Shown here in pieces: positions 11,840 through 64,000 of a stretch of DNA of 64,000 nucleotides. The DNA lies in the NCBI RefSeq assembly GCF_001677475.2, contig NZ_CP015229.1, one strand, 5' to 3'. Source of the DNA: Escherichia coli (GTDB lineage: Bacteria > Pseudomonadota > Gammaproteobacteria > Enterobacterales > Enterobacteriaceae). Made by a program: the position numbers and the translations under genes. Within the stretch, counting starts at the first letter, position 1. Each line of letters starts with the position of its first letter. Below the pieces are notes generated by a model, which saw nothing but the letters and a program-made list of their open reading frames with translations, was not told where the DNA came from and did not search any database.

Positions 11840-12355
<516 letters not shown>

Positions 12356-31810: not shown

Positions 31811-31818
31811 GGTCGGAA

Positions 31819-32565: not shown

Positions 32566-32579
32566 CAGAGGAGATGGGT

Positions 32580-33077: not shown

Positions 33078-33084
33078 GGATGCC

Positions 33085-35707: not shown

Positions 35708-35708
35708 C

Positions 35709-38753: not shown

Positions 38754-38779
38754 GCATATCAACCTGCGAGTACCCTACA

Positions 38780-40093
38780 ATGATAACCAATACAAAGCTT
38801 GACCCGATTGAAACCGCGTCTGTTGATGAGTTACAGGCGTTGCAAACACAGCGTCTGAAATGGACGCTCAAACACGCGTATGAAAATGTGCCGATGTATC
38901 GGCGCAAATTCGACGCAGCAGGCGTACATCCTGATGATTTCAGGGAACTTTCAGACCTGCGTAAATTTCCCTGTACCACCAAACAGGATCTGCGCGACAA
39001 CTATCCCTTCGACACCTTTGCCGTGCCGATGGAACAAGTGGTGCGCATTCATGCTTCTTCGGGAACCACAGGTAAACCGACAGTTGTCGGCTATACGCAA
39101 AACGATATTGATAACTGGGCCAATATTGTAGCGCGTTCCTTGCGTGCGGCAGGTGGCACGCCCAAAGACAAAATTCATGTTGCCTATGGTTACGGCCTGT
39201 TTACTGGTGGGCTGGGCGCGCACTATGGTGCCGAACGTCTGGGCGCTACGGTGATCCCGATGTCTGGCGGGCAGACGGAAAAACAAGCGCAACTGATCCG
39301 CGATTTTCAACCAGATATGATCATGGTTACGCCATCTTATTGCCTTAACCTGATTGAAGAGCTGGAGCGGCAGTTGGGCGGTGATGCCAGCGGTTGCTCG
39401 CTGCGAGTTGGAGTGTTTGGTGCTGAGCCGTGGACACAGGCCATGCGTAAAGAGATTGAGCGTCGCCTGGGGATCACCGCACTGGATATTTACGGCCTGT
39501 CAGAAGTGATGGGGCCGGGGGTGGCGATGGAGTGTCTGGAAACTACCGACGGCCCAACCATTTGGGAAGATCATTTCTATCCTGAAATTGTTAATCCTCA
39601 GGACGGCACACCACTTGCCGATGGCGAACATGGCGAACTGTTATTCACCACGCTGACCAAAGAAGCATTGCCGGTCATTCGTTACCGCACGCGTGATTTA
39701 ACCCGACTGTTACCAGGAACGGCGCGGACTATGCGCCGCATGGATCGCATCAGCGGACGCAGCGATGACATGTTGATCATTCGCGGTGTAAATGTATTCC
39801 CGTCACAATTGGAAGAAGAGATTGTCAAATTCGAACATTTATCGCCGCATTACCAACTGGAGGTGAACCGCCGGGGGCATCTTGATTCACTTTCTGTGAA
39901 AGTGGAGTTGAAAGAAAGTAGCCTGACATTGACGCATGAGCAGCGTTGCCAGGTGTGCCACCAGTTGCGCCATCGGATTAAGTCGATGGTGGGGATCTCT
40001 ACCGATGTGATGATCGTTAACTGTGGCAGTATCCCGCGTTCAGAAGGCAAGGCGTGTCGGGTGTTTGATCTGCGCAATATTGTTGGTGCCTGA
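38780..40093 (+). CDS. paaK: Phenylacetate-CoA ligase
   Basis: 437 aa from MITNTKLDPIE... Confidence 0.9.
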   Translation: MITNTKLDPIETASVDELQALQTQRLKWTLKHAYENVPMYRRKFDAAGVHPDDFRELSDLRKFPCTTKQDLRDNYPFDTFAVPMEQVVRIHASSGTTGKPTVVGYTQNDIDNWANIVARSLRAAGGTPKDKIHVAYGYGLFTGGLGAHYGAERLGATVIPMSGGQTEKQAQLIRDFQPDMIMVTPSYCLNLIEELERQLGGDASGCSLRVGVFGAEPWTQAMRKEIERRLGITALDIYGLSEVMGPGVAMECLETTDGPTIWEDHFYPEIVNPQDGTPLADGEHGELLFTTLTKEALPVIRYRTRDLTRLLPGTARTMRRMDRISGRSDDMLIIRGVNVFPSQLEEEIVKFEHLSPHYQLEVNRRGHLDSLSVKVELKESSLTLTHEQRCQVCHQLRHRIKSMVGISTDVMIVNCGSIPRSEGKACRVFDLRNIVGA

Positions 40094-40193
40094 CGTGTCG
40101 CCTGGCCCTGGTGAGGTAAAGCGCCAGGGCCAGAAGTCGATACGACCTGTGCTATGATTCATAAATCACAACAATAACAACAGACTGAATCGA

Positions 40194-41144
40194 ATGAGTA
40201 AACTTGATACTTTTATCCAACATGCTGTCAACGCTGTTCCTGTCAGTGGCACATCTTTGATCTCCTCTCTGTATGGTGATTCGCTTTCCCATCGTGGTGG
40301 TGAAATCTGGCTGGGTAGTCTGGCTGCTTTGCTGGAAGGGCTGGGATTTGGTGAGCGTTTCGTCCGCACCGCTTTGTTTCGTCTTAATAAAGAAGGCTGG
40401 CTGGATGTTTCCCGCATCGGGCGACGCAGTTTCTATAGCCTCAGTGATAAAGGCTTGCGTCTGACGCGACGGGCAGAAAGTAAAATTTATCGCGCAGAGC
40501 AACCTGCATGGGATGGTAAATGGCTCCTGTTGCTCTCGGAAGGTTTAGATAAATCAACGCTGGCTGATGTCAAAAAGCAGTTGATCTGGCAAGGTTTTGG
40601 CGCACTGGCACCCAGCCTGATGGCATCGCCGTCGCAAAAACTGGCGGATGTACAGACACTTTTGCATGAAGCGGGTGTGGCGGATAACGTGATTTGTTTT
40701 GAAGCGCAAATACCACTGGCGCTTTCTCGTGCAGCACTGCGTGCCAGAGTGGAAGAGTGCTGGCATTTAACTGAACAAAATGCCATGTACGAAACCTTTA
40801 TTCAGTCATTCCGCCCGCTGGTGCCGCTGTTAAAAGAGACGGCAGACGAGTTAACCCCGGAGCGTGCATTTCATATTCAGCTTTTACTGATCCATTTTTA
40901 TCGCCGTGTCGTCCTTAAAGACCCATTATTGCCGGAGGAGTTGCTTCCGGCACACTGGGCAGGGCATACGGCGCGTCAGCTGTGTATCAACATTTATCAG
41001 CGCGTAGCGCCTGCTGCTTTAGCGTTCGTTAGTGAAAAAGGTGAAACCTCGGTCGGTGAACTGCCTTCGCCGGGTAGCCTGTATTTTCAACGTTTTGGCG
41101 GTTTGAATATTGAACAGGAGGCGTTATGCCAATTTATCAGATAG
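40194..41144 (+). CDS. paaX: Phenylacetyl-CoA-responsive transcriptional repressor PaaX
   Basis: 316 aa. Confidence 0.95.
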
Positions 41145-41716
41145 ACGGTCTGACTCCGGTTGTACCAGAAGAGAGTTTTGTTCATCCGACAGCGGTATTG
41201 ATCGGCGATGTTATTCTCGGCAAGGGCGTTTACGTTGGACCAAATGCCAGTCTGCGTGGCGATTTTGGTCGTATCGTGGTGAAAGATGGCGCGAACATTC
41301 AGGATAATTGCGTTATGCACGGTTTTCCCGAGCAGGATACTGTCGTTGAAGAAGATGGGCATATTGGTCATAGCGCTATCCTTCACGGCTGCATTATCCG
41401 CCGCAATGCATTAGTGGGAATGAACGCGGTCGTGATGGACGGTGCGGTGATTGGCGAGAATAGCATTGTTGGCGCATCCGCATTTGTGAAAGCCAAAGCA
41501 GAAATGCCTGCTAATTACCTGATTGTCGGCAGCCCGGCGAAACCGATTCGTGAACTCAGTGAGCAGGAGCTGGCATGGAAAAAGCAGGGCACGCATGAGT
41601 ATCAGGTGCTGGTGACACGTTGTAAGCAGACGTTGCATCAAGTCGAACCATTGCGGGAAGTTGAGGCTGGCAGGCAGCGTCTGGTATTTGATGAGAATCT
41701 GCGACCGAAACAGTAA
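41126..41716 (+). CDS. paaY: Hexapeptide-repeat thioesterase/acyltransferase PaaY
   Basis: 196 aa left-handed beta-helix protein; overlaps paaX end. Confidence 0.95.
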
Positions 41717-42870: not shown

Positions 42871-45177
42871 ATGTTTAAGGCCAGGAATTGCAGCTGGATA
42901 GGTTTACTTCCCCTGTTTATGCTGAGTCTTCCAGTACAGGCGGAACTTCGATGTGTTGCAAATGCAGTTGATATTGAACCATTTTTTTCTGCGGCTACCG
43001 CTGAAGATAAACAACAAGTTGAACAAGCTATCAACAGTAGCGTGAATCTTGTCCCCGTCGGTTTATCTGCACCGGACTGGAAAGTGCATCGTGGCAATTT
43101 AGTGGTGGAAGGTAATATAGAGAGTAATGAAAAATTGATTGTTCTTGGCAATTTGACAGTCAAAGGAAATATTTCCACTTTCTCTCTTTCTAATCCATGG
43201 GTTATTCTCGGTGATGTGACGGCAACGAATATATTTACGGATTCACCACTGTTAATTACCGGTTCGATAGATGCAAGTGGACTGGTATTTATCGACTCAT
43301 ATTACGATAATCCGTCTACGATTAAGGGAAGTATTAATGCGCGCGGGATATTTATCAATGACATAATTGCACCTGTTGTTGTGTCTTCGATAAATAGCGA
43401 ATTCATGGTCCGTGCGGGAGACAAAAATGACACTGAAAATGTCAAAAAAGCACTGACGATAATAAATCCTGATGCATATTATTGGGGCCTAATAAATGAT
43501 GAAGATGCTCTGAAAGAAATTTTTAAGCGAAGCAATATTCGCATGGCAGGGAATGTCTGTAATCAGATGAAAAAAGAAGCGCTGTTTCGCCCTAAGCCTT
43601 CTCCTGAGTTAGTGCAGGAATTGCAAATGCTGGATGAAGGCAAAGTTGCTGCATTTGAAGGACGAGACATTGCGACATTTGATCTTGCCGTAATGCGAAC
43701 TCTCCCAAGGCTTAAAGGAATTTCAGCTAACCTACGCAAACAACTTATTAATAGCAATGATGAACAAACGATTGAAAGTATGGCGAGATATATGCCCGAC
43801 AATGAGATTCTGGAGTTGACCGATCAGCAATTGGGTTACCAGCCTGTGGTTCTGGGGTTGCTCAACCGTGAACCGCTCTCTGTCGAAATAATGACGCGAA
43901 TGAGTCGTCTACCTAATGGTGTCGGTCCGTTGAATCTTGCGCTACGTGAAGATCTCCCTCTGGATATCGTCATGACTCTGGCGAAAAGAGATTGGGATAT
44001 GATCATTCAGGAGCTTTATAAAGATGCGTGGTTATTGCCCGAATCCATTATTGATGGCTATATCCGCAGTGATGATTCCTCTATTCGTCAGGTCGGTGCT
44101 GGAGGACAACTCACCTACAATCAGGCAATGCAGTTGGCGAACGATTCATCAAACAATGTTGTCACAAGCTTAGCGTTCAAGCTGGCAGAGATGAAGCACC
44201 ATGGTCAATTGTTGCGGATGACGCCACAAGAGAGTGACAAAGTTGCAGGCTATTTATACCAAAAATTCGAGAATGACGATGATCTAATACGTGTGTTATT
44301 TTTAGCATTGCCAGATAACTTACAGTTTAATTTTGTTAAAAGGATGGAGAAAAAATCCCCGGCCTACTTTTGCTGTCGGGATATGCAGGTAATTCACTCT
44401 GACGCTGCTTTACAACGGTTATTGACACGTTTCAACGATCCTGAGGGGTGGAGTAATCTGGCGAAAAATCAGTATCTGAGTACGGCGAAGAAACAAAAAA
44501 TTTGGCATCGCGCTTTATCGCATCGAAAAAATAATCCGAAAGCAGATTCAGCTGCATATGAAACCAGCGCTGATATGATTTTGTCTGAGCTTATCAGCCA
44601 CGGTGAAGTTGATGACCAGATGCTATTAAATGCCACCGCCCTGATACGTTTGGAAGACTGGGACTTTTTAGAGAGTGCATTAGTTAGTTGGGATAATTTA
44701 CCCGCTGTTGTCCTCAAGGAATTACAGCAAAATACGCCACGCAATGATATTTGGGCGAAGTTTTTTCTGAGGCAGGAAAACAGCTCCCGTGCGCAGGTTG
44801 ATGAAGCATTACGCGTCTATTATGCACTCGACCCCGGTGCGTTAGCACAACTGGATGTACTGGCAAAACAACCGGATCGTATATGGTGGAGTACACTGGC
44901 GAAAAGCAATCTCACATTTTTCAAGTTCGGCGCACTTAACAACCGCCACACACCGCCTGCAGTACTGGCGGCAGAAATTGATCCCGAGTGGTGGATTGTG
45001 GCGATGAATAATCCCCGTTTTCCAGTTGATGTATTAAAGGCGAGGCTGAAACGTGATCCTTTGCTGGCGTTAGAGCTTGTTAACCCTGAACTGGATTTAG
45101 TCCGCCAGCTGGCGCTTAACGGTAAGACGCGCGCAATACGGGAACAAGCGATGAAAAAACTTGATGAGTTGTATTGA
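42871..45177 (+). CDS. ydbD: Large uncharacterised protein YdbD with N-terminal signal peptide
   Basis: 768 aa from ATG 42871 (the ORF track begins at GTG 42865). Confidence 0.8.
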   Translation: MFKARNCSWIGLLPLFMLSLPVQAELRCVANAVDIEPFFSAATAEDKQQVEQAINSSVNLVPVGLSAPDWKVHRGNLVVEGNIESNEKLIVLGNLTVKGNISTFSLSNPWVILGDVTATNIFTDSPLLITGSIDASGLVFIDSYYDNPSTIKGSINARGIFINDIIAPVVVSSINSEFMVRAGDKNDTENVKKALTIINPDAYYWGLINDEDALKEIFKRSNIRMAGNVCNQMKKEALFRPKPSPELVQELQMLDEGKVAAFEGRDIATFDLAVMRTLPRLKGISANLRKQLINSNDEQTIESMARYMPDNEILELTDQQLGYQPVVLGLLNREPLSVEIMTRMSRLPNGVGPLNLALREDLPLDIVMTLAKRDWDMIIQELYKDAWLLPESIIDGYIRSDDSSIRQVGAGGQLTYNQAMQLANDSSNNVVTSLAFKLAEMKHHGQLLRMTPQESDKVAGYLYQKFENDDDLIRVLFLALPDNLQFNFVKRMEKKSPAYFCCRDMQVIHSDAALQRLLTRFNDPEGWSNLAKNQYLSTAKKQKIWHRALSHRKNNPKADSAAYETSADMILSELISHGEVDDQMLLNATALIRLEDWDFLESALVSWDNLPAVVLKELQQNTPRNDIWAKFFLRQENSSRAQVDEALRVYYALDPGALAQLDVLAKQPDRIWWSTLAKSNLTFFKFGALNNRHTPPAVLAAEIDPEWWIVAMNNPRFPVDVLKARLKRDPLLALELVNPELDLVRQLALNGKTRAIREQAMKKLDELY

Positions 45178-45346
45178 TCCACAACGTAATATTTCTTAAC
45201 TATTTGATTAATTGGGATAATCATTCCTGACAGTGAGTCCCCAATACCTTGATATATTCTGAATTTTTAATGAAGCGGCGTGTTGCGATATCTCCGTCAG
45301 GGGAATTGATGCACCATAACGCAAACCGAATTATCAAGGATTGATA

Positions 45347-45952
45347 ATGACGCTCTACCAGATAAAACCGCTCTTTCAGTCGCTGTTAAGGCCGACGATG
45401 TTTTGGCTTTATAAGCACCACGTTACAGCGAATCACATCACTCTTGCTGCACTGGCGCTTTCTCTTCTTACCGGTTTGCTGTTGATGTTGGTGTCACAAC
45501 CCATCCTCTTTATGCTATTGCCCATCGTGCTTTTTGTCCGTATGGCGCTTAACGCGCTGGATGGTATGCTTGCGCGTGAGTGCAATCAGCAAACACGGCT
45601 TGGGGCAATTTTGAATGAGACTGGCGATGTTATTTCCGATATTGCTCTCTATTTACCGTTTTTATTTTTACCGGAAAGTAACGCATCACTCGTGATACTC
45701 ATGTTATTTTGCACCATATTGACCGAGTTTTGCGGTTTACTCGTGCAGACGATTAACGGTGTTCGCAATTATGCCGGTCCATTTGGCAAAAGCGATCGCG
45801 CGTTAATATTTGGTCTGTGGGGGCTAGCCGTTGCCATTTATCCACAGTGGATGCAATGGAATAATCTTTTATGGAGCATTGCTTCAATTCTGCTTCTCTG
45901 GACTGCGATTAATCGTTGTCGGAGTGTGCTCCTGATGAGCGCTGAAAGATAA
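45347..45952 (+). CDS. ynbA: CDP-alcohol phosphatidyltransferase family membrane protein
   Basis: 201 aa; motif DGMLAR...G...DVISD; multiple TM segments. Confidence 0.85.
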   Translation: MTLYQIKPLFQSLLRPTMFWLYKHHVTANHITLAALALSLLTGLLLMLVSQPILFMLLPIVLFVRMALNALDGMLARECNQQTRLGAILNETGDVISDIALYLPFLFLPESNASLVILMLFCTILTEFCGLLVQTINGVRNYAGPFGKSDRALIFGLWGLAVAIYPQWMQWNNLLWSIASILLLWTAINRCRSVLLMSAER

Positions 45953-46848
45953 TGCTGGAAAAATCTCTGGCAACACTTTTCGCGTTGTTAATTTTAGCAA
46001 CGCTGATAAACCGTTTTCTGGTATGGCGGTTACCGGAGAGAAAAGAGGATGAAGTTACATTACGTATTCGTACCTGGTGGGGCATCGTCATTTGTTTTTC
46101 ACTGGTGATTTCAGGTCCACGCTGGATGACGTTGACGTTTTTTACGCTGATAAGTTTTCTGGCATTGAAAGAATATTGTACGCTTATATCCGTACATTTT
46201 CCGCGTTGGTTATATTGGGTTATTCCTCTTAACTATTTGCTTATCGGTTTTAATTGCTTTGAGCTGTTTCTGTTATTTATACCTTTGACTGGGTTTCTGA
46301 TATTAGCCACCTGGCGAGTTTTTGTGGGTGACCCCTCCGGTTTTCTGCATACCGTGAGCGCCATTTTTTGGGGCTGGATAATGACCGTTTTTGCCTTGAG
46401 TCATGCCGCCTGGCTATTAATGTTGCCAACCATAAATATCCAGGGCGGGGCGTTACTGGTGTTATTTCTTTTGGCGTTAACCGAGTCAAACGATATTGCA
46501 CAGTATTTATGGGGGAAATCCTGCGGCAGAAGAAAAGTGGTCCCCAAAGTCAGCCCAGGAAAAACGCTGGAAGGTCTGGTGGGGGGCGTAATCACCACCA
46601 TGATTGCGTCACTGATTATTGGACCGTTGCTGACACCGCTAAATACATTACAGGCATTATTAGCGGGTTTGTTAATTGGTATTAGTGGTTTTTGCGGCGA
46701 TGTAGTGATGTCAGCCATCAAACGAGATATTGGTGTTAAAGATAGTGGAAAACTATTACCAGGACATGGCGGACTCCTTGACAGGATTGACTCATTAATT
46801 TTCACCGCTCCGGTATTTTTTTATTTTATTCGCTACTGCTGTTACTGA
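45952..46848 (+). CDS. ynbB: CdsA-like phosphatidate cytidylyltransferase family membrane protein
   Basis: 298 aa; C-terminal CDS signature SAIKRDIGVKDSGKLLPGHGGLLDRIDS; start overlaps ynbA stop. Confidence 0.85.
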   Translation: MLEKSLATLFALLILATLINRFLVWRLPERKEDEVTLRIRTWWGIVICFSLVISGPRWMTLTFFTLISFLALKEYCTLISVHFPRWLYWVIPLNYLLIGFNCFELFLLFIPLTGFLILATWRVFVGDPSGFLHTVSAIFWGWIMTVFALSHAAWLLMLPTINIQGGALLVLFLLALTESNDIAQYLWGKSCGRRKVVPKVSPGKTLEGLVGGVITTMIASLIIGPLLTPLNTLQALLAGLLIGISGFCGDVVMSAIKRDIGVKDSGKLLPGHGGLLDRIDSLIFTAPVFFYFIRYCCY

Positions 46849-46863
46849 AGGAAAATAGAGAAA

Positions 46864-49927
<3,064 letters not shown>

Positions 49928-49977
49928 GTGGATTGAGATGTGGACTGAACTACAGTCCACATCAAGATCGTATCCGG

Positions 49978-50592
<615 letters not shown>

Positions 50593-50783
50593 TTATAGAT
50601 GTTTGAATGGGCGATGCCCCGTTGCTTGTTGACACTTTATTCACAATCCTGCCACAGAGATAGCGCAATAAATCGAAGCCTATGTTCGAATTTATTGAAC
50701 AACGCATAGAAAGCCGCGATGTGGTACTCTATATCTATCATTTAAAAGAAAATTAATCAGGCAGACTACTGCCCACTAACGTT

Positions 50784-53700
50784 ATGACAGAACAACAAAA
50801 ATTGACCTTTACTGCTTTGCAACAGCGGCTGGATTCGCTGATGCTGCGCGACAGACTGCGTTTTTCTCGCCGTCTGCACGGTGTTAAGAAGGTTAAAAAT
50901 CCTGATGCACAACAGGCCATTTTCCAGGAAATGGCGAAAGAGATTGACCAGGCGGCAGGGAAAGTCCTGCTGCGTGAAGCGGCACGACCGGAAATCACTT
51001 ATCCGGACAATTTGCCAGTTAGTCAGAAAAAGCAGGACATACTCGAAGCGATTCGCGATCACCAGGTGGTGATCGTCGCCGGGGAAACGGGTTCTGGTAA
51101 AACGACTCAGTTACCGAAAATCTGTATGGAGCTGGGGCGCGGGATTAAAGGGCTGATCGGCCATACCCAGCCGCGTCGCCTGGCGGCAAGAACGGTGGCG
51201 AACCGTATTGCGGAAGAGCTGAAAACGGAGCCGGGCGGTTGCATCGGTTACAAAGTGCGTTTCAACGATCACGTAAGTGATAACACGATGGTCAAGCTGA
51301 TGACCGACGGTATCCTGTTGGCGGAGATCCAACAAGACCGCCTGCTAATGCAGTACGACACCATCATTATTGACGAGGCGCACGAACGCAGCCTGAATAT
51401 CGATTTTCTGCTCGGCTATTTGAAAGAGTTGCTGCCGCGGCGTCCTGACCTAAAAATCATTATCACTTCCGCGACTATCGACCCGGAACGCTTTTCGCGC
51501 CACTTTAATAATGCGCCGATTATTGAAGTCTCCGGTCGGACTTATCCGGTGGAAGTGCGCTATCGCCCGATAGTTGAAGATGCGGATGACACTGAGCGCG
51601 ACCAGTTGCAGGCGATTTTTGACGCCGTGGATGAACTGGGGCGTGAAAGTGCCGGCGACATTCTGATCTTTATGAGCGGCGAGCGGGAAATTCGCGATAC
51701 CGCCGATGCGCTGAACAAGCTGAATCTGCGTCATACGGAAATTTTACCGCTTTATGCGCGGCTTTCGAATAGCGAACAGAACCGCGTGTTCCAGTCGCAC
51801 AGCGGACGGCGTATTGTGCTGGCGACCAACGTCGCGGAAACCTCGCTGACCGTACCGGGGATTAAATACGTTATCGACCCCGGTACGGCGCGTATCAGCC
51901 GCTACAGCTATCGCACCAAAGTGCAGCGTTTGCCGATTGAACCCATTTCACAGGCGTCTGCCAATCAGCGTAAAGGCCGTTGTGGTCGTGTGTCCGAAGG
52001 GATCTGTATTCGTCTCTATTCCGAAGACGATTTCCTCTCGCGCCCGGAGTTTACCGATCCAGAGATTCTGCGTACCAACCTGGCCTCGGTTATTTTGCAG
52101 ATGACCGCGCTGGGGCTGGGCGATATCGCTGCGTTCCCGTTTGTCGAAGCACCGGATAAACGCAATATCCAGGATGGCGTGCGTCTGCTCGAAGAGCTGG
52201 GCGCGATCACCACTGATGAACAGGCCAGCGCCTATAAACTGACGCCGCTCGGTCGTCAGCTCTCGCAGTTGCCTGTCGACCCACGTCTGGCGCGTATGGT
52301 GCTGGAAGCGCAAAAACATGGCTGCGTGCGTGAGGCGATGATTATCACGTCCGCGCTCTCCATTCAGGATCCGCGCGAACGTCCGATGGACAAACAGCAG
52401 GCATCGGACGAAAAACATCGTCGCTTCCACGACAAAGAGTCTGACTTCCTGGCGTTTGTGAATCTGTGGAATTATCTTGGCGAGCAGCAAAAGGCGCTTT
52501 CTTCAAACGCCTTCCGTCGCCTGTGTCGTACCGATTATCTCAACTATCTGCGTGTGCGCGAATGGCAGGATATCTACACCCAGTTGCGTCAGGTGGTGAA
52601 AGAACTTGGCATTCCGGTCAACAGCGAACCGGCGGAGTATCGCGAAATTCACATCGCCTTACTGACCGGTTTGCTTTCCCATATCGGCATGAAAGATGCC
52701 GATAAACAGGAATATACCGGTGCACGTAACGCGCGTTTCTCCATCTTCCCCGGTTCTGGTTTATTCAAAAAGCCGCCGAAATGGGTAATGGTGGCGGAAT
52801 TGGTAGAAACCAGCCGCCTGTGGGGGCGCATTGCTGCGCGTATCGATCCAGAATGGGTGGAACCCGTTGCGCAGCATTTGATTAAACGCACCTACAGCGA
52901 ACCGCACTGGGAACGGGCGCAGGGCGCGGTGATGGCAACGGAAAAAGTCACTGTGTATGGATTGCCGATTGTTGCCGCGCGCAAGGTCAACTACAGCCAG
53001 ATTGATCCGGCGTTATGTCGTGAACTCTTTATTCGCCACGCGCTGGTGGAAGGTGACTGGCAGACGCGTCACGCATTCTTCCGTGAAAACCTGAAACTGC
53101 GGGCCGAAGTGGAAGAACTGGAACACAAATCACGTCGCCGCGATATTCTGGTTGATGACGAAACGTTGTTTGAGTTTTATGACCAGCGCATCAGCCACGA
53201 TGTAATCTCCGCTCGTCACTTCGACAGCTGGTGGAAAAAAGTCAGCCGCGAAACGCCTGATTTGCTGAACTTTGAAAAGAGCATGTTGATCAAAGAAGGG
53301 GCGGAAAAAATCAGCAAGCTGGATTACCCGAACTTCTGGCATCAGGGCAATCTCAAGCTGCGTTTGAGCTATCAGTTTGAGCCCGGCGCGGATGCTGACG
53401 GTGTGACGGTACATATCCCGCTGCCGTTACTTAATCAGGTTGAGGAGAGTGGGTTTGAGTGGCAGATCCCCGGCCTGCGCCGCGAACTGATCATCGCGCT
53501 GATTAAATCGTTGCCGAAACCGGTACGGCGTAATTTTGTACCCGCGCCAAACTACGCCGAAGCGTTCTTAGGCCGCGTCACGCCACTGGAGCTGCCGTTG
53601 CTCGACAGCCTTGAGCGCGAGCTACGTAGGATGACCGGCGTTACCGTTGACCGCGAGGACTGGCACTGGGATCAGGTGCCCGATCACCTGAAAATCACCT

Positions 53701-54686
53701 TCCGCGTGGTGGATGACAAAAACAAGAAGCTAAAAGAAGGGCGCTCGCTACAAGATCTGAAAGACGCGCTGAAAGGCAAAGTGCAGGAAACGCTGTCTGC
53801 GGTGGCGGATGACGGTATCGAGCAGAGCGGCTTACATATCTGGAGCTTTGGGCAACTGCCGGAAAGCTATGAGCAGAAGCGCGGCAACTACAAAGTGAAG
53901 GCGTGGCCAGCGTTGGTGGATGAACGCGACAGCGTAGCGATCAAACTGTTTGATAATCCGCTGGAACAGAAGCAAGCGATGTGGAACGGTCTTCGCCGTT
54001 TGCTACTGCTGAATATTCCATCGCCGATCAAGTACTTGCATGAAAAGTTACCAAACAAAGCCAAGTTAGGGCTGTACTTTAACCCGTATGGCAAAGTGCT
54101 GGATCTTATCGACGACTGTATCTCCTGCGGTGTGGATAAATTGATCGATGCCAACGGTGGCCCTGTCTGGACGGAAGAATGCTTTGCTGCGCTGCATGAA
54201 AAAGTGCGTGCCGAACTGAACGATACGGTGGTGGATATTGCGAAGCAGGTCGAGCAAATCCTCACAGCGGTGTTCAATATCAATAAACGCCTTAAAGGGC
54301 GCGTTGATATGACGATGGCGCTGGGACTTTCAGATATCAAAGCGCAGATGGGCGGGCTGGTATATCGCGGTTTTGTCACCGGTAACGGTTTCAAACGTCT
54401 GGGTGACACGCTGCGTTATTTGCAGGCGATTGAAAAACGACTGGAAAAACTGGCGGTTGACCCGCATCGTGACCGTGCACAGATGCTCAAAGTCGAGAAC
54501 GTCCAGCAGGCGTGGCAGCAGTGGATCAACAAACTGCCGCCAGCACGTCGTGAGGATGAAGACGTGAAAGAGATTCGTTGGATGATAGAGGAGTTGCGCG
54601 TCAGTTACTTCGCTCAACAACTTGGTACGCCTTATCCTATTTCTGACAAGCGTATTTTGCAGGCGATGGAGCAGATTAGCGGATAA
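50784..54686 (+). CDS. hrpA: DEAH-box ATP-dependent RNA helicase
   Basis: 1300 aa; Walker A GETGSGKT, DEAH box (IIIDEAHERS). Confidence 0.95.
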   Translation: MTEQQKLTFTALQQRLDSLMLRDRLRFSRRLHGVKKVKNPDAQQAIFQEMAKEIDQAAGKVLLREAARPEITYPDNLPVSQKKQDILEAIRDHQVVIVAGETGSGKTTQLPKICMELGRGIKGLIGHTQPRRLAARTVANRIAEELKTEPGGCIGYKVRFNDHVSDNTMVKLMTDGILLAEIQQDRLLMQYDTIIIDEAHERSLNIDFLLGYLKELLPRRPDLKIIITSATIDPERFSRHFNNAPIIEVSGRTYPVEVRYRPIVEDADDTERDQLQAIFDAVDELGRESAGDILIFMSGEREIRDTADALNKLNLRHTEILPLYARLSNSEQNRVFQSHSGRRIVLATNVAETSLTVPGIKYVIDPGTARISRYSYRTKVQRLPIEPISQASANQRKGRCGRVSEGICIRLYSEDDFLSRPEFTDPEILRTNLASVILQMTALGLGDIAAFPFVEAPDKRNIQDGVRLLEELGAITTDEQASAYKLTPLGRQLSQLPVDPRLARMVLEAQKHGCVREAMIITSALSIQDPRERPMDKQQASDEKHRRFHDKESDFLAFVNLWNYLGEQQKALSSNAFRRLCRTDYLNYLRVREWQDIYTQLRQVVKELGIPVNSEPAEYREIHIALLTGLLSHIGMKDADKQEYTGARNARFSIFPGSGLFKKPPKWVMVAELVETSRLWGRIAARIDPEWVEPVAQHLIKRTYSEPHWERAQGAVMATEKVTVYGLPIVAARKVNYSQIDPALCRELFIRHALVEGDWQTRHAFFRENLKLRAEVEELEHKSRRRDILVDDETLFEFYDQRISHDVISARHFDSWWKKVSRETPDLLNFEKSMLIKEGAEKISKLDYPNFWHQGNLKLRLSYQFEPGADADGVTVHIPLPLLNQVEESGFEWQIPGLRRELIIALIKSLPKPVRRNFVPAPNYAEAFLGRVTPLELPLLDSLERELRRMTGVTVDREDWHWDQVPDHLKITFRVVDDKNKKLKEGRSLQDLKDALKGKVQETLSAVADDGIEQSGLHIWSFGQLPESYEQKRGNYKVKAWPALVDERDSVAIKLFDNPLEQKQAMWNGLRRLLLLNIPSPIKYLHEKLPNKAKLGLYFNPYGKVLDLIDDCISCGVDKLIDANGGPVWTEECFAALHEKVRAELNDTVVDIAKQVEQILTAVFNINKRLKGRVDMTMALGLSDIKAQMGGLVYRGFVTGNGFKRLGDTLRYLQAIEKRLEKLAVDPHRDRAQMLKVENVQQAWQQWINKLPPARREDEDVKEIRWMIEELRVSYFAQQLGTPYPISDKRILQAMEQISG

Positions 54687-54712
54687 CGCTGCAATCTGGT
54701 TGATAAATCTAA

Positions 54713-54746
54713 AACCCGGTAAGCATTTAGCGCCGGGTTTTTTATT
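54713..54746 (+). terminator. Terminator hairpin after hrpA
   Basis: AAACCCGG...CCGGGTTTTTTATT. Confidence 0.55.
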
Positions 54747-54958
54747 AATTCTAAAAACGGTAAGGGAAAAAATTCAGGAGTTCAGAAAAATACAATTCTC
54801 TGCTGCAAGATGAATAATGTTTATCTACAGCATTTCCTTAAAAGATATGTCAGGCTTGCGGAGTGGCGGTTAAGGAAATACGACTTCCTCCTTTCAGAGT
54901 GCTCCGCTTCTCACTATTATCTCACGCAGTATTCTTAAGGGAACGATAAGGAGGAACC

Positions 54959-55759
54959 ATGAACATTACCCCGTTTCCGACGCTTTCGCCGGCAACCATA
55001 GATGCTATAAATGTTATCGGACAGTGGCTGGCGCAGGATGATTTCTCCGGTGAGGTGCCGTATCAGGCCGATTGCGTGATCCTTGCAGGCAATGCGGTTA
55101 TGCCGACTATCGACGCGGCATGTAAGATTGCCCGCGATCAGCAAATTCCTTTACTGATTAGTGGTGGTATCGGTCACTCGACAACTTTTTTGTATAGCGC
55201 CATCGCACAACATCCGCATTACAACACTATCCGCACCACTGGCAGAGCAGAAGCTACCATCCTGGCGGATATCGCTCATCAGTTCTGGCATATTCCGCAT
55301 GAAAAAATCTGGATTGAAGACCAGTCAACAAACTGCGGTGAAAACGCACGCTTTAGCATCGCGCTATTGAATCAGGCCGTAGAACGAGTTCATACGGCTA
55401 TCGTTGTTCAAGACCCCACCATGCAGCGGCGCACGATGGCGACGTTCCGCCGTATGACCGGGGACAATCCCGATGCACCACGTTGGTTAAGTTATCCCGG
55501 ATTCGTTCCTCAGTTAGGAAATAACGCAGACAGTGTAATCTTTGTTAATCCGTTGCAAGGATTATGGCCGGTTGAGCGTTATCTATCACTACTCACTGGC
55601 GAGCTGCCGCGTTTACGCGATGATAGCGATGGCTACGGTCCCCGCGGGCGAGATTTTATCGTTCACGTTGATTTTCCGGCAGAAGTCATTCAGGCATGGC
55701 AAACGCTGAAACATGATGCGGTGCTCATCGAGGCGATGGAAAGTCGCTCGTTACGTTAA
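54959..55759 (+). CDS. ydcF: DUF218-family protein
   Basis: 266 aa; K-12 synteny. Confidence 0.85.
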
Positions 55760-55955
55760 AAATTGCCCGTTTGTGAACCACTTGTTTGCAAACGGGCATG
55801 ACTCCTGACTTTTATTTCTGCCTTTTATTCCTTTTACACTTGTTTTTATGAAGCCCTTCACAGAATTGTCCTTTCACGATGCCGTCTCTATGATGATTGA
55901 TGTTAATTAACAATGCATTTACCAAAAACAAACATATAAATCACAGGAGTCGCCC

Positions 55956-57395
55956 ATGTCAGTACCCGTTCAACATCCTATGTATATTGATGGACAGTTT
56001 GTTACCTGGCGTGGAGACGCATGGATTGATGTGGTAAACCCTGCTACTGAGGCTGTCATTTCCCGCATTCCCGATGGTCAGGCCGAGGATGCCCGTAAGG
56101 CAATCGATGCAGCAGAACGTGCACAACCAGAATGGGAAGCGTTGCCTGCTATTGAACGCGCCAGTTGGTTGCGCAAAATCTCCGCCGGGATCCGGGAACG
56201 TGCCAGTGAAATCAGTGCGCTGATTGTCGAAGAAGGGGGCAAGATCCAGCAGCTGGCTGAAGTTGAAGTGGCTTTTACTGCGGACTATATCGATTATATG
56301 GCGGAGTGGGCACGCCGTTATGAAGGCGAGATTATTCAAAGCGATCGTCCAGGAGAAAATATTCTTCTGTTTAAACGTGCGCTTGGCGTGACTACCGGCA
56401 TTCTGCCGTGGAACTTCCCGTTCTTCCTCATTGCACGCAAAATGGCTCCCGCTCTTTTGACCGGTAATACCATCGTCATTAAACCCAGTGAATTTACGCC
56501 AAACAATGCGATTGCATTCGCCAAAATCGTCGATGAAATAGGCCTTCCGCGCGGCGTGTTTAACCTTGTACTGGGGCGTGGTGAAACCGTTGGGCAAGAA
56601 CTGGCGGGTAACCCAAAGGTCGCAATGGTCAGTATGACAGGCAGCGTCTCTGCAGGTGAGAAGATCATGGCGACTGCGGCGAAAAACATCACCAAAGTGT
56701 GTCTGGAATTGGGTGGTAAAGCACCGGCTATCGTAATGGACGATGCCGATCTTGAACTGGCAGTCAAAGCCATCGTTGATTCACGCGTCATTAATAGTGG
56801 GCAAGTGTGTAACTGTGCAGAACGTGTTTATGTACAGAAAGGCATTTATGATCAGTTCGTCAATCGTCTGGGTGAAGCGATGCAGGCGGTTCAATTTGGT
56901 AACCCCGCTGAACGCAACGACATTGCGATGGGGCCGTTGATTAACGCCGCGGCGCTGGAAAGGGTTGAGCAAAAAGTAGCGCGCGCAGTAGAAGAAGGGG
57001 CGAGAGTGGGGTTGGGTGGCAAAGCGGTAGAGGGGAAAGGATATTATTATCCGCCGACATTGCTGTTGGATGTTCGCCAGGAAATGTCGATTATGCATGA
57101 GGAAACCTTTGGCCCGGTTCTGCCGGTGGTCGCATTTGACACGCTGGAAGATGCTATCTCAATGGCGAATGACAGTGATTACGGCCTGACCTCATCAATC
57201 TATACCCAAAATCTGAACGTCGCGATGAAAGCCATTAAAGGGCTGAAGTTTGGTGAAACTTACATCAACCGTGAAAACTTCGAAGCTATGCAAGGCTTCC
57301 ACGCCGGATGGCGTAAATCCGGTATTGGCGGCGCAGATGGTAAACATGGCCTGCATGAATATCTGCAGACCCAGGTGGTTTATTTACAGTCGTAA
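55956..57395 (+). CDS. aldA: Lactaldehyde / glycolaldehyde dehydrogenase
   Basis: 479 aa ALDH, catalytic Cys in SGQVCNCAERV. Confidence 0.95.
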   Translation: MSVPVQHPMYIDGQFVTWRGDAWIDVVNPATEAVISRIPDGQAEDARKAIDAAERAQPEWEALPAIERASWLRKISAGIRERASEISALIVEEGGKIQQLAEVEVAFTADYIDYMAEWARRYEGEIIQSDRPGENILLFKRALGVTTGILPWNFPFFLIARKMAPALLTGNTIVIKPSEFTPNNAIAFAKIVDEIGLPRGVFNLVLGRGETVGQELAGNPKVAMVSMTGSVSAGEKIMATAAKNITKVCLELGGKAPAIVMDDADLELAVKAIVDSRVINSGQVCNCAERVYVQKGIYDQFVNRLGEAMQAVQFGNPAERNDIAMGPLINAAALERVEQKVARAVEEGARVGLGGKAVEGKGYYYPPTLLLDVRQEMSIMHEETFGPVLPVVAFDTLEDAISMANDSDYGLTSSIYTQNLNVAMKAIKGLKFGETYINRENFEAMQGFHAGWRKSGIGGADGKHGLHEYLQTQVVYLQS

Positions 57396-57405
57396 TGAGT
57401 GGAAG

Positions 57406-57429
57406 AGGCGGAGGTTTTTTCCTCCGCCT
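57406..57429. terminator. Bidirectional terminator between convergent aldA and gapC
   Basis: AGGCGGAGG-TTTTTT-CCTCCGCCT hairpin. Confidence 0.7.
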
Positions 57430-57436
57430 GTGTGCG

Positions 57437-58438
57437 TCAGAGTTTAGCGAATTTTTCGAGGGTGCGAATGAGCTGTGTGACGAAGCCATATTCGTTATCG
57501 TACCAGGCGACCGTTTTCACCAGTTGTAAATCGCCCACGGCGGTAATTTCCGTTTGCGTGGCATCAAACACCGAACCGAAATGGCTGCCAATGATATCGG
57601 AAGAGACTATTTCTTCATCGGTATAACCAAATGACTCGTTATTGTTTGTCGCCTTTTTAAGCGCGTTGTTCACCTCTTCGGCAGTCACTTTTTTTCCGAG
57701 AATCGACACCAGTTCAGTGACCGAACCTGTTTTCACCGGCACGCGTTGCGCATGACCTTTCAGTTTGCCGCTCAGTTCCGGGATCACCAGACCAATGGCT
57801 TTTGCCGCCCCCGTAGTGTGGGGAATGATATTTTCTGCCGCTGCGCGTGAAGCACGTAAATCTTTACCACGCGGGCCATCAACCAGTGACTGGGTGCCAG
57901 TGTAGGCATGAATGGTCGTCATCGTGCCGACTTCTATCCCGAAACTGTCATGCAAGGCTTTGGCCATCGGCGCAAGGCAGTTAGTGGTGCATGACGCCAC
58001 GGAAACAATAGTGTCGTTGCCATCCAGAGTGTCGTCATTGACGTTATAAACGATGGTTTTCATTTCACCGGCAGGGGCGGAAATCAACACCTTCTTCGCG
58101 CCAGCATCAAGATGTGCCTGCGATTTCTCGGCGGAGGTATAAAAGCCAGTACATTCGACAATGATTTCTGCACCTTTCGCTTTCCACGGAATATTTTTAG
58201 CCTCTTTTTCGGCGTAAACCGCGATGCTTTTTCCATCAACGATAAGTGAATCTTCCGTAAAATCAACGCTCCAGGGGAACGGTCCGTAGTTTGAATCATG
58301 TTTCAGCAGGTAGGCGAGAATTTTTGGGGAAGTGAGATCATTAATAGCGACAATGTCTATGTTGCTTTTGACTTCAAGTAATCGACGCAACACCAGTCGA
58401 CCGATACGACCAAAACCGTTAATACCAACTTTACTCAT
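57437..58438 (-). CDS. gapC: Glyceraldehyde-3-phosphate dehydrogenase C (intact ORF)
   Basis: 333 aa uninterrupted GAPDH ORF (catalytic SCTTNC). Confidence 0.9.
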
Positions 58439-58626
58439 GGTCTTCTCCTGTCAGGAACGTTCGGATGAAAATTGATCCTTTCCAGGCTTAGACCAGGATG
58501 GCGGGATGGGCAATCTACATTCTTGCCGTGAAACGTAACGTACTGAAAATGGGTGAACAATATTTAATGAAATTTTAAGAAAAGCTCGTTATGTTAACAG
58601 CAAATTGTTTTAAAGCAGGAAATGTT

Positions 58627-59157
58627 ATGGAAAATAAATACTCTAGGTTACAAATCAGCATTCACTGGCTGGTCTTTTTGCTGGTTATCGCAGCGTATTG
58701 CGCAATGGAGTTTCGTGGTTTCTTCCCACGTAGCGATCGGCCGCTCATCAACATGATTCATGTTTCCTGTGGCATCACAATTCTCGTGCTGATGATGGTT
58801 CGTCTTTTGTTAAGGCTGAAATACCCAACCCCGCCGATTATACCTAAGCCAAAACCGATGATGACGGGACTGGCGCATTTGGGACATTTGGTGATCTATC
58901 TCCTGTTTATTGCGCTGCCAGTGATTGGTTTGGTGATGATGTATAACCGGGGTAACCCGTGGTTTGCGTTTGGTATAACGATGCCTTATGCATCAGAGGC
59001 CAATTTCGAACGGGTTGATAGCTTAAAGTCGTGGCATGAAACGCTGGCGAATCTGGGATACTTTGTCATCGGGTTGCACGCTGCGGCTGCACTGGCACAC
59101 CACTATTTCTGGAAGGACAACACACTTCTACGCATGATGCCGCGTAAACGTTCCTGA
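58627..59157 (+). CDS. cybB: Cytochrome b561
   Basis: 176 aa from MENKYSRLQISIHWLVFLL...; the ORF-track upstream start at 58591 is rejected. Confidence 0.9.
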   Translation: MENKYSRLQISIHWLVFLLVIAAYCAMEFRGFFPRSDRPLINMIHVSCGITILVLMMVRLLLRLKYPTPPIIPKPKPMMTGLAHLGHLVIYLLFIALPVIGLVMMYNRGNPWFAFGITMPYASEANFERVDSLKSWHETLANLGYFVIGLHAAAALAHHYFWKDNTLLRMMPRKRS

Positions 59158-59401
59158 AGGATATTTAAAGAAAACGCCTGTACTAAAACCGACCCGTGGT
59201 ACAGGCGAAGAATACGGGCCTACATCGGAAGCGCCTATTATATTTATTTGTATGACAAATAAAACCATAATCCTTGTCCATACGTCCATCTGGCTTATCT
59301 TTAATCAATTCACCCGATCTTTGATCTCATCAACGGTATCAAAATAAACCAGCGTATAACGTTAAAATCAAACATAAGATTCGATAAATCATGGAGGTTA
59401 T

Positions 59402-59575
59402 ATGAAAAAACTGGCATTTATCTTGGTTATGGGAACGCTTGTTTCCTTTTATGCCGATGCCGGGCGCAAACCCTGTTCTGGTTCGAAAGGGGGGATCTCA
59501 CACTGTACGGCAGGCGGCAAATTTGTTTGTAATGATGGTTCTATTAGTGCATCGAAAAAAACATGCACTAACTGA
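59402..59575 (+). CDS. ydcA: Small secreted Cys-rich protein YdcA
   Basis: 57 aa ([20 protein letters not shown]...) with SD GGAGG; below the ORF-track cutoff, translated manually. Confidence 0.8.
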
Positions 59576-59646
59576 AGTGTAAAAGGGGTGCCATGAGAAA
59601 ATGAATCCGCTAGTCAGATGCGCGGGGAAAATTCCCGCGCTTGCCC

Positions 59647-59839
<193 letters not shown>

Positions 59840-59854
<15 letters not shown>

Positions 59855-59905
59855 TCGTTGGCCTCGGTTGATAGAAATATCGGTCGGGGCCTTCGTCTTT
59901 CTGAT
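59840..59905 (+). ncRNA. sokB: Putative SokB antisense RNA (coordinates approximate)
   Basis: Expected antisense partner opposite the mokB start/leader; placement by analogy to hok/sok, not by sequence match. Confidence 0.3.
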
Positions 59906-60194
59906 TCCCGGTTAGCCTGAAAACAGAAAGTCTCAGGCACCCGTGAGCATCCTATGTGGTTTCCTTAGGGACGAAAATAATCACCTGACGAAATTGCGTG
60001 CTGTTTTCCAGAATTTTTCGTTATTCGGTTTAGCCAGTTTAATCATTCGTTACTCTCTTCATTCCAATGGCATTAATCTTCTCTGCAATAATTGTTGTAA
60101 AAATGTGACGCAAAGAGGTTTTTGGTCGTAAGTAATTACCGTCAAGTGCCGATGACTTTCTATCAGGAGTAAACCTGGAAGAGAGACAACGGTA

Positions 60195-61835
60195 ATGAAT
60201 ACAACTCCCTCACAGCGATTAGGTTTTTTGCATCACATCAGGCTGGTTCCGTTATTTGCCTGCATTCTTGGCGGTATCTTAGTTCTATTCGCATTAAGTT
60301 CAGCCCTGGCCGGCTATTTCCTTTGGCAGGCCGATCGCGATCAGCGTGATGTTACTGCGGAGATTGAGATTCGGACCGGGTTAGCGAACAGTTCAGATTT
60401 TTTGCGTTCAGCCCGGATCAATATGATTCAGGCCGGTGCTGCGAGTCGTATTGCGGAAATGGAAGCAATGAAGCGAAATATTGCGCAAGCCGAATCGGAG
60501 ATTAAACAGTCGCAGCAAGGTTATCGTGCTTATCAGAAGAGGTCGGTGAAAACACCTGCTGATGAAGCCCTCGACACTGAATTAAATCAACGCTTCCAGG
60601 CTTATATCACGGGTATGCAACCTATGTTGAAATATGCCAAAAATGGCATGTTTGAAGCGATTATCAATCATGAAAGTGAGCAGATCCGACCGCTGGATAA
60701 TGCTTATACCGATATTTTGAACAAAGCCGTTAAGATACGTAGCACCAGAGCCAACCAACTGGCGGAACTGGCCCATCAGCGCACCCGCCTGGGTGGGATG
60801 TTCATGATTGGCGCGTTTGTGCTTGCCCTGGTCATGACGCTGATAACATTTATAGTGCTACGTCGGATCGTCATTCGTCCACTGCAACATGCCGCACAAC
60901 GGATTGAAAAAATCGCCAGTGGCGATTTGACGATGAATGATGAACCGGCGGGTCGTAATGAAATCGGTCGCTTAAGTCGTCATTTACAGCAAATGCAGCA
61001 TTCATTGGGGATGACAGTAGGGACCGTTCGACAGGGCGCGGAAGAGATTTATCGTGGCACCAGCGAAATTTCCGCTGGCAATGCGGACCTGTCATCTCGC
61101 ACCGAAGAACAAGCGTCGGCAATTGAACAAACTGCCGCCAGCATGGAGCAACTCACTGCGACGGTGAAACAGAATGCGGATAACGCGCATCATGCCAGCC
61201 AACTGGCGCAAAAGGCTTCTATTAAAGCCAACGATGGCGGGCAGACGGTTTCCGGTGTAGTAAAAACGATGGGGGCTATCTCCACGAGTTCGAAGAAAAT
61301 TTCTGAGATCACCGCCGTCATCAACAGTATTGCTTTCCAGACGAATATTCTGGCACTGAATGCTGCCGTTGAAGCCGCGCGAGCGGGTGAGCAAGGGCGT
61401 GGATTTGCCGTTGTCGCCAGCGAAGTACGGACACTCGCAAGCCGCAGCGCCCAGGCGGCGAAAGAGATTGAAGGCTTGATCAGTGAATCAGTTAGGTTAA
61501 TTGACCTGGGGTCGGATGAGGTGGCAACGGCAGGGAAAACCATGAGCACTATTGTTGATGCCGTCGCGAGTGTCACACATATCATGCAGGAAATCGCCGC
61601 CGCCTCGGATGAACAAAGCAGAGGCATAACACAGATTAGCCAGGCGATTTCTGAAATGGATAAGGTGACGCAACAGAATGCTTCTCTGGTAGAAGAGGCC
61701 TCAGCGGCGGCGGTGTCCCTTGAAGAACAGGCGGCACGATTAACTGAGGCGGTGGACGTATTCCGTCTGAACAAACATTCTGTGTCGGCAGATCCTCGCG
61801 GAGCTGGTGAACCAGTTAGTTTCGCTACGGTGTGA
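60195..61835 (+). CDS. trg: Methyl-accepting chemotaxis protein III (ribose/galactose sensor)
   Basis: 546 aa; two TM segments, HAMP, highly conserved MCP signalling domain. Confidence 0.95.
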
Positions 61836-61872
61836 AAATGTTAAAGGGGGGATCGACAGATCCCTTCACCTT

Positions 61873-62796
61873 TCAGAACGGCATTGATTTTCGAATAGCG
61901 TTAATCATCAACTGGCAACCAGAAGAGAACGTCGCATCTACGCGGGTCAGTATTCCAATCGGTTCGCCTGCACCATGTCCCGGAACAGGCAGGGCCACCA
62001 GAGTGGCATGACGCAGGTCGTCTTTTACAGCGCCAGAAGGGACAAACCACACGTAGTCGTATTCAACCGTAAGTTGACGAGATAGCGAAGCAGACAGCGT
62101 TTCGATACAACCCGAAGGAATTTTACATCCCTGGCTCTGCACTAATGCATCTGAATGCTGGCGTGGCGCAGTGCCTTCTGGTGATACAACGACCGGCCAT
62201 TCCAGCACCCGGCTTAGCGTTACGTTCTCCTGAAGTAGCGGGTGATTAGGGCGGACAACCAGCTTCAGCGATTCAAGAAACAGCAGTTCGTAATTAAGCC
62301 CGGTCATCAGTTCAGGATCTGACATCCGACCAATGCCGATATCGATTTCCCCGGTTTTTAAACCCGCCAGAATCATAGGGTTACTCATTGTCGCAACTTG
62401 CAAGGTCGTCTCTTTTTGTTGCTGATGAAACTGACCTATAACCGAAGGTAATATCCCCAGTGCCGCAGTAGGTAGTGCACCAACCCTGACGACATCATTA
62501 TTAAGACCTTCTTTACGATGAAGCGACTGTCCGGCAGTGTTGATGGCGTCAAGAACTCTGACTGCATGCGTTAAAAATTGCTCGCCGGGTAAGGTAAGTT
62601 GCGCCCCCTGACGACCACGCTCAAACAAGCGAGCGCCCGTCAGCTGCTCCAGTTCATTCAATGTCTTAGAGAGCGCAGGTTGACTCAAATTAAGGGTTTC
62701 AGCCGCGCGCCCCAAAGTTCCTTGTTGTGCGACAGCTACGAATGTATGAAGGTGGCGCAAACGGATGCGCTGACTAAACAGACTATTTTTTTCCAT
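61873..62796 (-). CDS. ydcI: LysR-family transcriptional regulator
   Basis: 307 aa from MEKNSLFSQRIRLRHLHTF...; the 354-aa ORF-track start is rejected. Confidence 0.85.
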   Translation of the reverse strand: MEKNSLFSQRIRLRHLHTFVAVAQQGTLGRAAETLNLSQPALSKTLNELEQLTGARLFERGRQGAQLTLPGEQFLTHAVRVLDAINTAGQSLHRKEGLNNDVVRVGALPTAALGILPSVIGQFHQQQKETTLQVATMSNPMILAGLKTGEIDIGIGRMSDPELMTGLNYELLFLESLKLVVRPNHPLLQENVTLSRVLEWPVVVSPEGTAPRQHSDALVQSQGCKIPSGCIETLSASLSRQLTVEYDYVWFVPSGAVKDDLRHATLVALPVPGHGAGEPIGILTRVDATFSSGCQLMINAIRKSMPF

Positions 62797-63012
62797 AAGC
62801 GATGTTAAAAACGAAGCGGTGTCGCTGACAAGTGAAGTTGTTTGATTATGATAACTTGATTGCAAAATATTATTAACAATTAAAGCAATCATGTTACAAC
62901 AAAATGGATAATATTGATGTTTTCGCGGCGAGATCACAGTTTGTAAATTCTTCCCGCCGGAGTGAATGCGGTTACCTACACTCCAGATTACTGACCACTG
63001 GAGGCAGATACT

Positions 63013-64000
63013 ATGGCGAACAGCATCACGGCGGATGAGATTCGGGAACAGTTTTCGCAGGTAATGTCAGCCATGTACCAGCAAGAAGTTCCGCAGTACG
63101 GCACGCTGCTGGAACTGGTAGCTGATGTGAATCTGGCTGTGCTGGAAAACAATCCTCAACTGCACGAAAAAATGGTAAATGCAGACGAGCTGGCGCGACT
63201 GAATGTTGAACGTCATGGGGCGATTCGCGTTGGGACTGCACAAGAGCTTGCTACTCTTCGGCGGATGTTTGCCATTATGGGGATGTACCCGGTGAGCTAT
63301 TACGATCTCTCGCAGGCGGGGGTGCCGGTACATTCGACAGCATTTCGGCCTATTGATGATGCTTCTCTGGCGCGTAATCCCTTCCGCGTTTTTACTTCAT
63401 TACTCCGACTTGAGCTTATCGAGAACGAAATTTTGCGCCAGAAAGCGGCGGAGATTCTGCGTCAGCGCGATATCTTCACCCCACGTTGTCGACAACTGTT
63501 AGAGGAATATGAGCAGCGGGGCGGTTTTAACGAAACACAGGCACAGGAGTTTGTGCAGGAAGCCCTGGAAACGTTTCGCTGGCACCAGTCAGCAACGGTA
63601 GATGAAGAAACCTATCGCGCCTTGCACAACGAACATCGGTTGATTGCTGATGTGGTCTGTTTTCCTGGATGCCATATCAACCACCTGACGCCACGTACGC
63701 TGGATATTGACCGGGTGCAGTCGATGATGCCTGAATGCGGAATTGAACCCAAAATTCTGATCGAGGGGCCGCCGCGCCGCGAGGTGCCGATTTTACTACG
63801 CCAGACCAGCTTTAAAGCACTGGAAGAGACGGTGTTGTTTGCGGGGCAGAAACAGGGCACGCATACCGCGCGCTTTGGTGAAATAGAGCAGCGTGGCGTG
63901 GCATTAACGCCGAAAGGGCGACAACTGTATGATGATCTTCTGTGTAACGCTGGAACCGGGCAGGATAATCTCACTCACCAAATGCATTTACAGGAAACCT
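63013..64000 (+). CDS. ydcJ: DUF1338-family protein YdcJ, N-terminal part (continues beyond the window)
   Basis: Frame open from ATG 63013 to the window end; K-12 synteny. Confidence 0.8.
   Translation, partial: MANSITADEIREQFSQVMSAMYQQEVPQYGTLLELVADVNLAVLENNPQLHEKMVNADELARLNVERHGAIRVGTAQELATLRRMFAIMGMYPVSYYDLSQAGVPVHSTAFRPIDDASLARNPFRVFTSLLRLELIENEILRQKAAEILRQRDIFTPRCRQLLEEYEQRGGFNETQAQEFVQEALETFRWHQSATVDEETYRALHNEHRLIADVVCFPGCHINHLTPRTLDIDRVQSMMPECGIEPKILIEGPPRREVPILLRQTSFKALEETVLFAGQKQGTHTARFGEIEQRGVALTPKGRQLYDDLLCNAGTGQDNLTHQMHLQET

Follow-up and report, generated by a model that had tools for sequence, protein, structure and literature searches.

An intact gapC gene in Escherichia coli predicted to encode a second type I glyceraldehyde-3-phosphate dehydrogenase

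In Escherichia coli K-12 the gapC gene is annotated as a pseudogene (b4493, 1001 bp in MG1655; earlier names gapC_1/gapC_2, b1417/b1416). In the stretch of E. coli DNA analyzed here, 64,000 nucleotides in full and referred to below as the window, the orthologous locus carries an uninterrupted reading frame. The locus therefore raises two questions: whether the strain possesses a second functional glyceraldehyde-3-phosphate dehydrogenase (GAPDH) beside GapA, as the original prediction proposed, and whether an intact gapC is as rare within E. coli as the comparison with K-12 had implied. The features on which the answers depend are as follows.

55956–57395, plus strand: aldA, aldehyde dehydrogenase A, convergent with gapC (open reading frame)
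57406–57429, no strand assigned: GC-rich hairpin AGGCGGAGG-T6-CCTCCGCCT in the 41-bp convergent aldA-gapC spacer (fold)
57437–58438, minus strand: gapC coding sequence, 333 amino acids, intact type I NAD-dependent GAPDH (open reading frame listing and translation)
57689–57695, minus strand: A7 homopolymer at gene nucleotides 744–750, codons 248–250; A6 in K-12, a frameshift (alignment)
57908–57910, minus strand: codon CAT of the catalytic His177 (sequence)
57989–57991, minus strand: codon TGC of the catalytic Cys150, inside SCTTNC (sequence)
58322–58324, minus strand: codon 39, AAA (Lys) in the window and TAA in K-12 (alignment with MG1655 gapC)
58445–58449, minus strand: Shine-Dalgarno sequence AGGAG, 6 nt 5′ of the gapC ATG (sequence; kept in 10 other E. 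coli loci)
58627–59157, plus strand: cybB, cytochrome b561 / superoxide oxidase, divergent from gapC (open reading frame and K-12 annotation)

The gapC reading frame and its product

The gapC frame runs on the minus strand from ATG to TGA over 333 codons without interruption, at the position given in the original prediction. Its product matches TIGR01534, the NCBIfam equivalog model for type I GAPDH, with 447 bits against a curated cut-off of 367.2, and the match spans residues 3–325 of the protein and positions 1–330 of the 330 in the model. With a score above this cut-off, the reading frame is not due to chance. The SCTTNC motif, also named in the prediction, is found at residues 149–154, which places the catalytic Cys at residue 150. 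The N-terminal NAD-binding GxGxxG motif (NGFGRIGR) is formed by residues 7–14, and Asp34 is present within the segment AINDL; an Asp at GAPDH position 34 is the residue that selects NAD+ over NADP+. Both Pfam domains of the family, PF00044 (Gp_dh_N) and PF02800 (Gp_dh_C), are recorded for a protein identical to the window product. This exact protein is found on at least 718 public contigs, where it is named type I glyceraldehyde-3-phosphate dehydrogenase.

The product is identical at 330 of 333 residues to E. coli EcGAPDH1 (PDB 7C5F). This is one of a group of near-identical entries (7C5F, 7C5H, 7C5P, and 7C7K, together with C150A, C150S, and H177A mutants), and the EcGAPDH1 structures contain NAD, glyceraldehyde-3-phosphate (G3P), and the thioacyl intermediate. 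EcGAPDH1, which represents proteins of the WP_000048667.1 type, agrees with the window product in length, in Cys150 and His177, and in its aldA-gapC-cybB locus; it differs by three conservative substitutions, I29V, K262Q, and N265T (window residue first). GapA also has an Ile at the position aligned to gapC residue 29. Wild-type EcGAPDH1 is active, with a Km of 0.73 mM for G3P and a high turnover, and both Cys150 and His177 are essential: activity is abolished in C150A, 3.8 × 10^4-fold lower in C150S, and 8 × 10^3-fold lower in H177A (PMC8615399). We note that these assays were made at pH 10 and 50 °C on a protein three residues off the window allele (PMC8615399), such that the physiological activity we propose for the window allele is extrapolated from EcGAPDH1.

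The main glycolytic GAPDH of E. coli, GapA (b1779), is likewise a type I phosphorylating enzyme and has the catalytic motif in common with the gapC product, but the two are only 47% identical. The GAPDHs of Enterococcus and Listeria, at 68–71% identity, are closer to the gapC product than GapA is. GapA is the “eukaryote-like” form of the enzyme and GapC the typical bacterial form. The erythrose-4-phosphate dehydrogenase Epd (GapB) also shares the GAPDH-family fold and the active-site Cys with the gapC product, but the latter reaches just 277–280 bits against Epd models whose cut-offs are 530–539, and a score so far below these cut-offs indicates that it is not an Epd. Assignments of the gapC product to Epd, to the ArsJ-associated GAPDHs, and to type II GAPDH were all ruled out on curated cut-offs.

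The K-12 lesions and their distribution in E. coli

The K-12 gene is the ortholog of the window gene, with shared neighbors, but is not identical to it. Global alignment of the two gives 22 substitutions and one 1-bp gap in 1002 nt (97.8% nucleotide identity), and two of these differences are lesions. The nonsense lesion is an A-to-T change at gene nucleotide 115, which converts codon 39 to a stop, and the frameshift arises because the A7 run is one A short. The original prediction had described K-12 gapC as frameshifted; this is borne out by the 1-bp loss in codons 248–250, but the description was incomplete, in that it missed the TAA at codon 39. Both marks of the K-12 pseudogene are missing from the window gene. 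Further missense differences of K-12 from the window are R18G, I29V, and N265T, as well as K262Q and N264T, the latter two in restored codons past the frameshift. K-12 gapC differs from intact B1-type alleles at only 4–5 nt and is therefore a young pseudogene.

The frequency of both lesions was surveyed among the 5,426 complete RefSeq E. coli genomes, in 5,417 of which gapC was found. The survey used short probes (41-mers at codon 39), with each 28-mer seed forced across the lesion. The K-12 TAA allele of codon 39 was detected in 1,155 genomes and the intact AAA allele in 3,718, while the K-12 A6 allele was detected in 1,050. A concatenated probe for both lesions matched at 2,205 places in 1,163 genomes, such that 21.4% have at least one K-12-type lesion; the two counts together give 1,042 genomes with both lesions, leaving 113 with the nonsense lesion alone and 8 with the frameshift alone. 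A further ∼544 genomes match neither of the 41-mer probes at codon 39 and presumably carry nearby polymorphisms. As the survey covered the two K-12 lesions only, the ∼79% of genomes without them represent an upper bound on intact gapC, given these ∼544 unmatched genomes and other kinds of lesion outside the survey.

Annotation agrees with this distribution. In 10 of 11 genomes drawn at regular intervals along the similarity ranking, ABU 83972 and O157:H7 Xuzhou21 among them, PGAP lists an intact “type I glyceraldehyde-3-phosphate dehydrogenase,” and the A7 run is present in all 10 of these alleles; in the remaining genome, gapC is annotated as “frameshifted; internal stop.” An intact gapC is thus the majority state in E. 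coli, with the broken K-12 copy as the exception, and the rarity implied by the original prediction has to be given up in view of the ∼79% of complete genomes that lack the K-12 lesions. Neither the biology of an intact gapC nor its routine annotation is new. Its presence in natural and environmental E. coli isolates is stated in a passage of the later literature that cites Espinosa-Urgel & Kolter (1998).

Carriers of the lesions have been isolated from humans, pigs, a mouse, a frog, and both migratory and wild birds, so the lesions are not an artefact of laboratory domestication. We considered whether the two could represent a single linked haplotype. This was ruled out by FT130, from a migratory bird, which carries the codon-39 stop only, and by M9, from a mouse, which carries the A7-to-A6 slip only. 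Apart from this slip, the M9 allele has the sequence of the intact EH53 allele, which points to either independent homopolymer slippage or recombination. The A7-to-A6 slip in gapC looks recurrent.

Selection on gapC and the weighing of readings

Across 11 distinct E. coli gapC alleles from an evenly drawn sample, dN/dS is 0.036; a set giving 0.028 included alleles fetched by exact protein identity and is biased low. In comparisons with E. whittamii, Escherichia sp. E1V33, and E. albertii the ratio is 0.012–0.021, at a dS of ∼0.7–0.8. The window gene differs at 15 or more sites from every allele fetched, the great majority of the substitutions being synonymous, and those alleles that encode exactly the window protein are separated from it by 22–32 synonymous and 0 non-synonymous changes. 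Orthologs are intact across the Enterobacteriaceae, at 90–93% identity in Citrobacter and 85–88% in Klebsiella, with further intact copies in Enterobacter, Kluyvera, Kosakonia, and Pantoea. Judged by this pattern of substitution, gapC is a selectively maintained enzyme gene under strong purifying selection. We also considered whether ∼2–3% divergence and a dS of ∼0.1 at gapC are unusual in themselves, and rejected this idea: dS at aldA, ydcF, and cybB is 0.07–0.10, and synonymous divergence equal to that of these genes argues against a locus-specific anomaly.

The hallmarks of type I enzymes, the near-identity to the assayed EcGAPDH1, purifying selection, and freedom from the K-12 lesions all favor the central claim of the original prediction, and a second functional GAPDH in the window strain is very likely. 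The reading that we prefer, with a probability of roughly 0.9, is that the window carries the intact ancestral allele of gapC, a chromosomal paralog of gapA, and that this allele encodes a phosphorylating NAD-dependent type I GAPDH that would serve as a conditional isoenzyme beside GapA. In the mechanism we propose, Cys150 would form a thiohemiacetal and then the thioacyl intermediate with G3P, with His177 acting as the base. NAD+ bound in the N-terminal Rossmann fold would take the hydride, and phosphate would then bring about the release of 1,3-bisphosphoglycerate. The gene would be transcribed and its enzyme active in the window strain. We would expect GapC to be expressed conditionally, in stationary phase, hunger, or low-temperature aquatic conditions, with GapA staying the main glycolytic GAPDH.

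Three other readings can be set against this one. An intact but cryptic gapC, without meaningful expression and headed for the pseudogene state of K-12, would leave GapA as the sole working GAPDH. In keeping with this, a simple scan of positions 57000–59000 found no sigma-70 consensus promoter, upstream of gapC or elsewhere in that interval, and loss of gapC is evidently tolerated, given that lesions have spread to 21% of complete genomes and that the nonsense and frameshift lesions also occur separately. A gene silent for long is, however, incompatible with dN/dS values as low as those within E. coli and between species. The ribosome-binding site and the upstream spacer are also kept, and transcription persists at the broken K-12 locus, which was among the differentially expressed genes in a study of hunger and global regulators and has been reported to be RpoS-dependent. 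We consider crypticity very unlikely. Still less probable, in our judgment, is that the gapC product is a GAPDH-family enzyme with another main substrate or role, be it Epd-like, an ArsJ-coupled arsenate-detoxifying enzyme, or an NADP-dependent gluconeogenic enzyme of the GapB type. The product does match those NCBIfam models with good E-values, and gapC has been classed in one paper among putative gluconeogenic genes whose expression rises in slow growth. Yet the scores fall well short of the curated cut-offs (280 against 539 for Epd, 307 against 450 for the ArsJ-associated model), the flanking genes are aldA and cybB rather than an arsJ, the NAD-specificity residue Asp34 is present, and the near-identical EcGAPDH1 uses G3P and NAD+.

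The intact frame could also be an artefact of assembly or consensus calling, the real gene having the K-12 frameshift in its A run. A homopolymer is a classic site of sequencing error, and at this site the two alleles differ by nothing other than A7 versus A6. Against such an error, codon 39 is also intact as AAA, 22 substitutions separate the window allele from that of K-12, A7 is present in every one of the ten sampled alleles annotated as intact, and more than 700 independent contigs encode this protein without a single residue changed. We give this reading next to no credence and retain that of an intact gene for a type I GAPDH.

What the isoenzyme would be for is a more tentative matter. 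GapC may be niche-specific, with a use in cold or fresh water away from the host or during starvation under RpoS control. Lineages in which it was repeatedly inactivated would then be those that have ceased to depend on that niche, and the window lineage would be one that still depends on the enzyme. The presence of a lesion in 21% of genomes, with the codon-39 nonsense and the A7-to-A6 change occurring both alone and together, suggests such a role, which we regard as possible but somewhat doubtful. Nothing in this reading is particular to the window, and its core goes back to 1998.

For practical purposes, K-12 is a poor reference for the gapC locus. The ∼79% of E. coli genomes without the K-12 lesions would encode a second phosphorylating GAPDH, and K-12-based metabolic models and assumptions of gapA essentiality may not transfer to them. 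The lesion counts refine the known story of gapC and open no new one; apart from accurate annotation, the intact gene is of little consequence.

The flanking spacers and other regions of the window

The order aldA-gapC-cybB is common to the window, MG1655, and ten other E. coli genomes, and cybB is followed by RydC, ydcA, hokB/sok, and trg, in the same order as at the MG1655 locus. The 188-bp spacer between gapC and cybB, which should hold the gapC promoter, is kept across E. coli loci with a few SNPs. At its far end, mechanical open reading frame calling begins cybB at an ATG at 58591 (58591–59157, plus strand, 188 amino acids), whereas the 176-amino-acid protein of K-12 and PGAP corresponds to a start at 58627; twelve additional in-frame N-terminal codons are thus open in the window. 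Two small RNAs on the minus strand, each with an Rfam match above the gathering score and each positioned as in K-12, lie beyond: RydC (59168–59231), just 3′ of cybB, and the sok antitoxin RNA of hokB/sokB (59791–59942).

In the spacer on the other side of gapC, the original prediction had placed a strong bidirectional terminator shared with aldA. The hairpin there is GC-rich, stable, and conserved. It has a 9-bp stem and a T6 loop, with a folding energy of −22.1 kcal/mol on the plus strand and −18.5 kcal/mol on the minus strand; the corresponding z scores are −4.5 and −4.8, and 0 of 200 and 1 of 200 shuffled sequences, respectively, fold as well. Ten other E. coli loci have the stem unchanged. 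The T/A run, however, forms the loop of the hairpin and not its tail. On the aldA strand the stem is followed by UGUGUGCG and on the gapC strand by UCUUCCAC, each with U at 3 of 8 positions, so that a U-tract 3′ of the stem is absent on both strands, and a terminator scan requiring at least 5 U made no call. The hairpin thus stands, and its description as a strong bidirectional terminator is supported only in part. The site is plausibly a transcript-end hairpin shared by the two genes, though one that lacks canonical U-tracts.

Other E. coli alleles have UCUUUUAC in the tail of the hairpin on the gapC strand. The tail in the window (57430–57436) reads UCUUCC. Of ten other E. coli alleles sampled, only L099 has this form, and the remaining nine read UCUUUU or UCUUUC. 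These T-to-C changes weaken whatever U-tract the gapC terminator has.

The window clearly resembles E. coli: over 7–8 kb, it is 97–97.6% identical to the E. coli loci fetched, and a scan of species representatives places other Escherichia species at 84–89% DNA identity. Among the 5,426 complete RefSeq E. coli genomes, none exceeds 97.2% identity over window positions 45000–64000 (19 kb), and none exceeds 98.5% over gapC. Across the 19 kb compared, a divergence of ∼2.8% separates the window lineage from all of these complete genomes. The lineage seems to be unrepresented among them, and could be an E. coli of a divergent or cryptic-clade-I-like kind.

Positions 1–20000 match less completely, with the best five genomes 96.2–97.1% identical at a coverage of no more than 73%. 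Within positions 1–12000, lambdoid prophage tail genes, including a gpJ-like open reading frame of 1233 amino acids (4264–7965) and tail-fiber open reading frames, lie immediately upstream of ompN and MicC. Even the best-matching genomes leave some of the tail-fiber region unmatched, at this same coverage of at most 73%. The MicC small RNA (13773–13893, plus strand) has an Rfam match above the gathering score and is positioned as in K-12. A run of co-oriented open reading frames extends from 31807 to 41716, and from its position alone we take this to be the place of the paa (phenylacetate catabolism) cluster of K-12.
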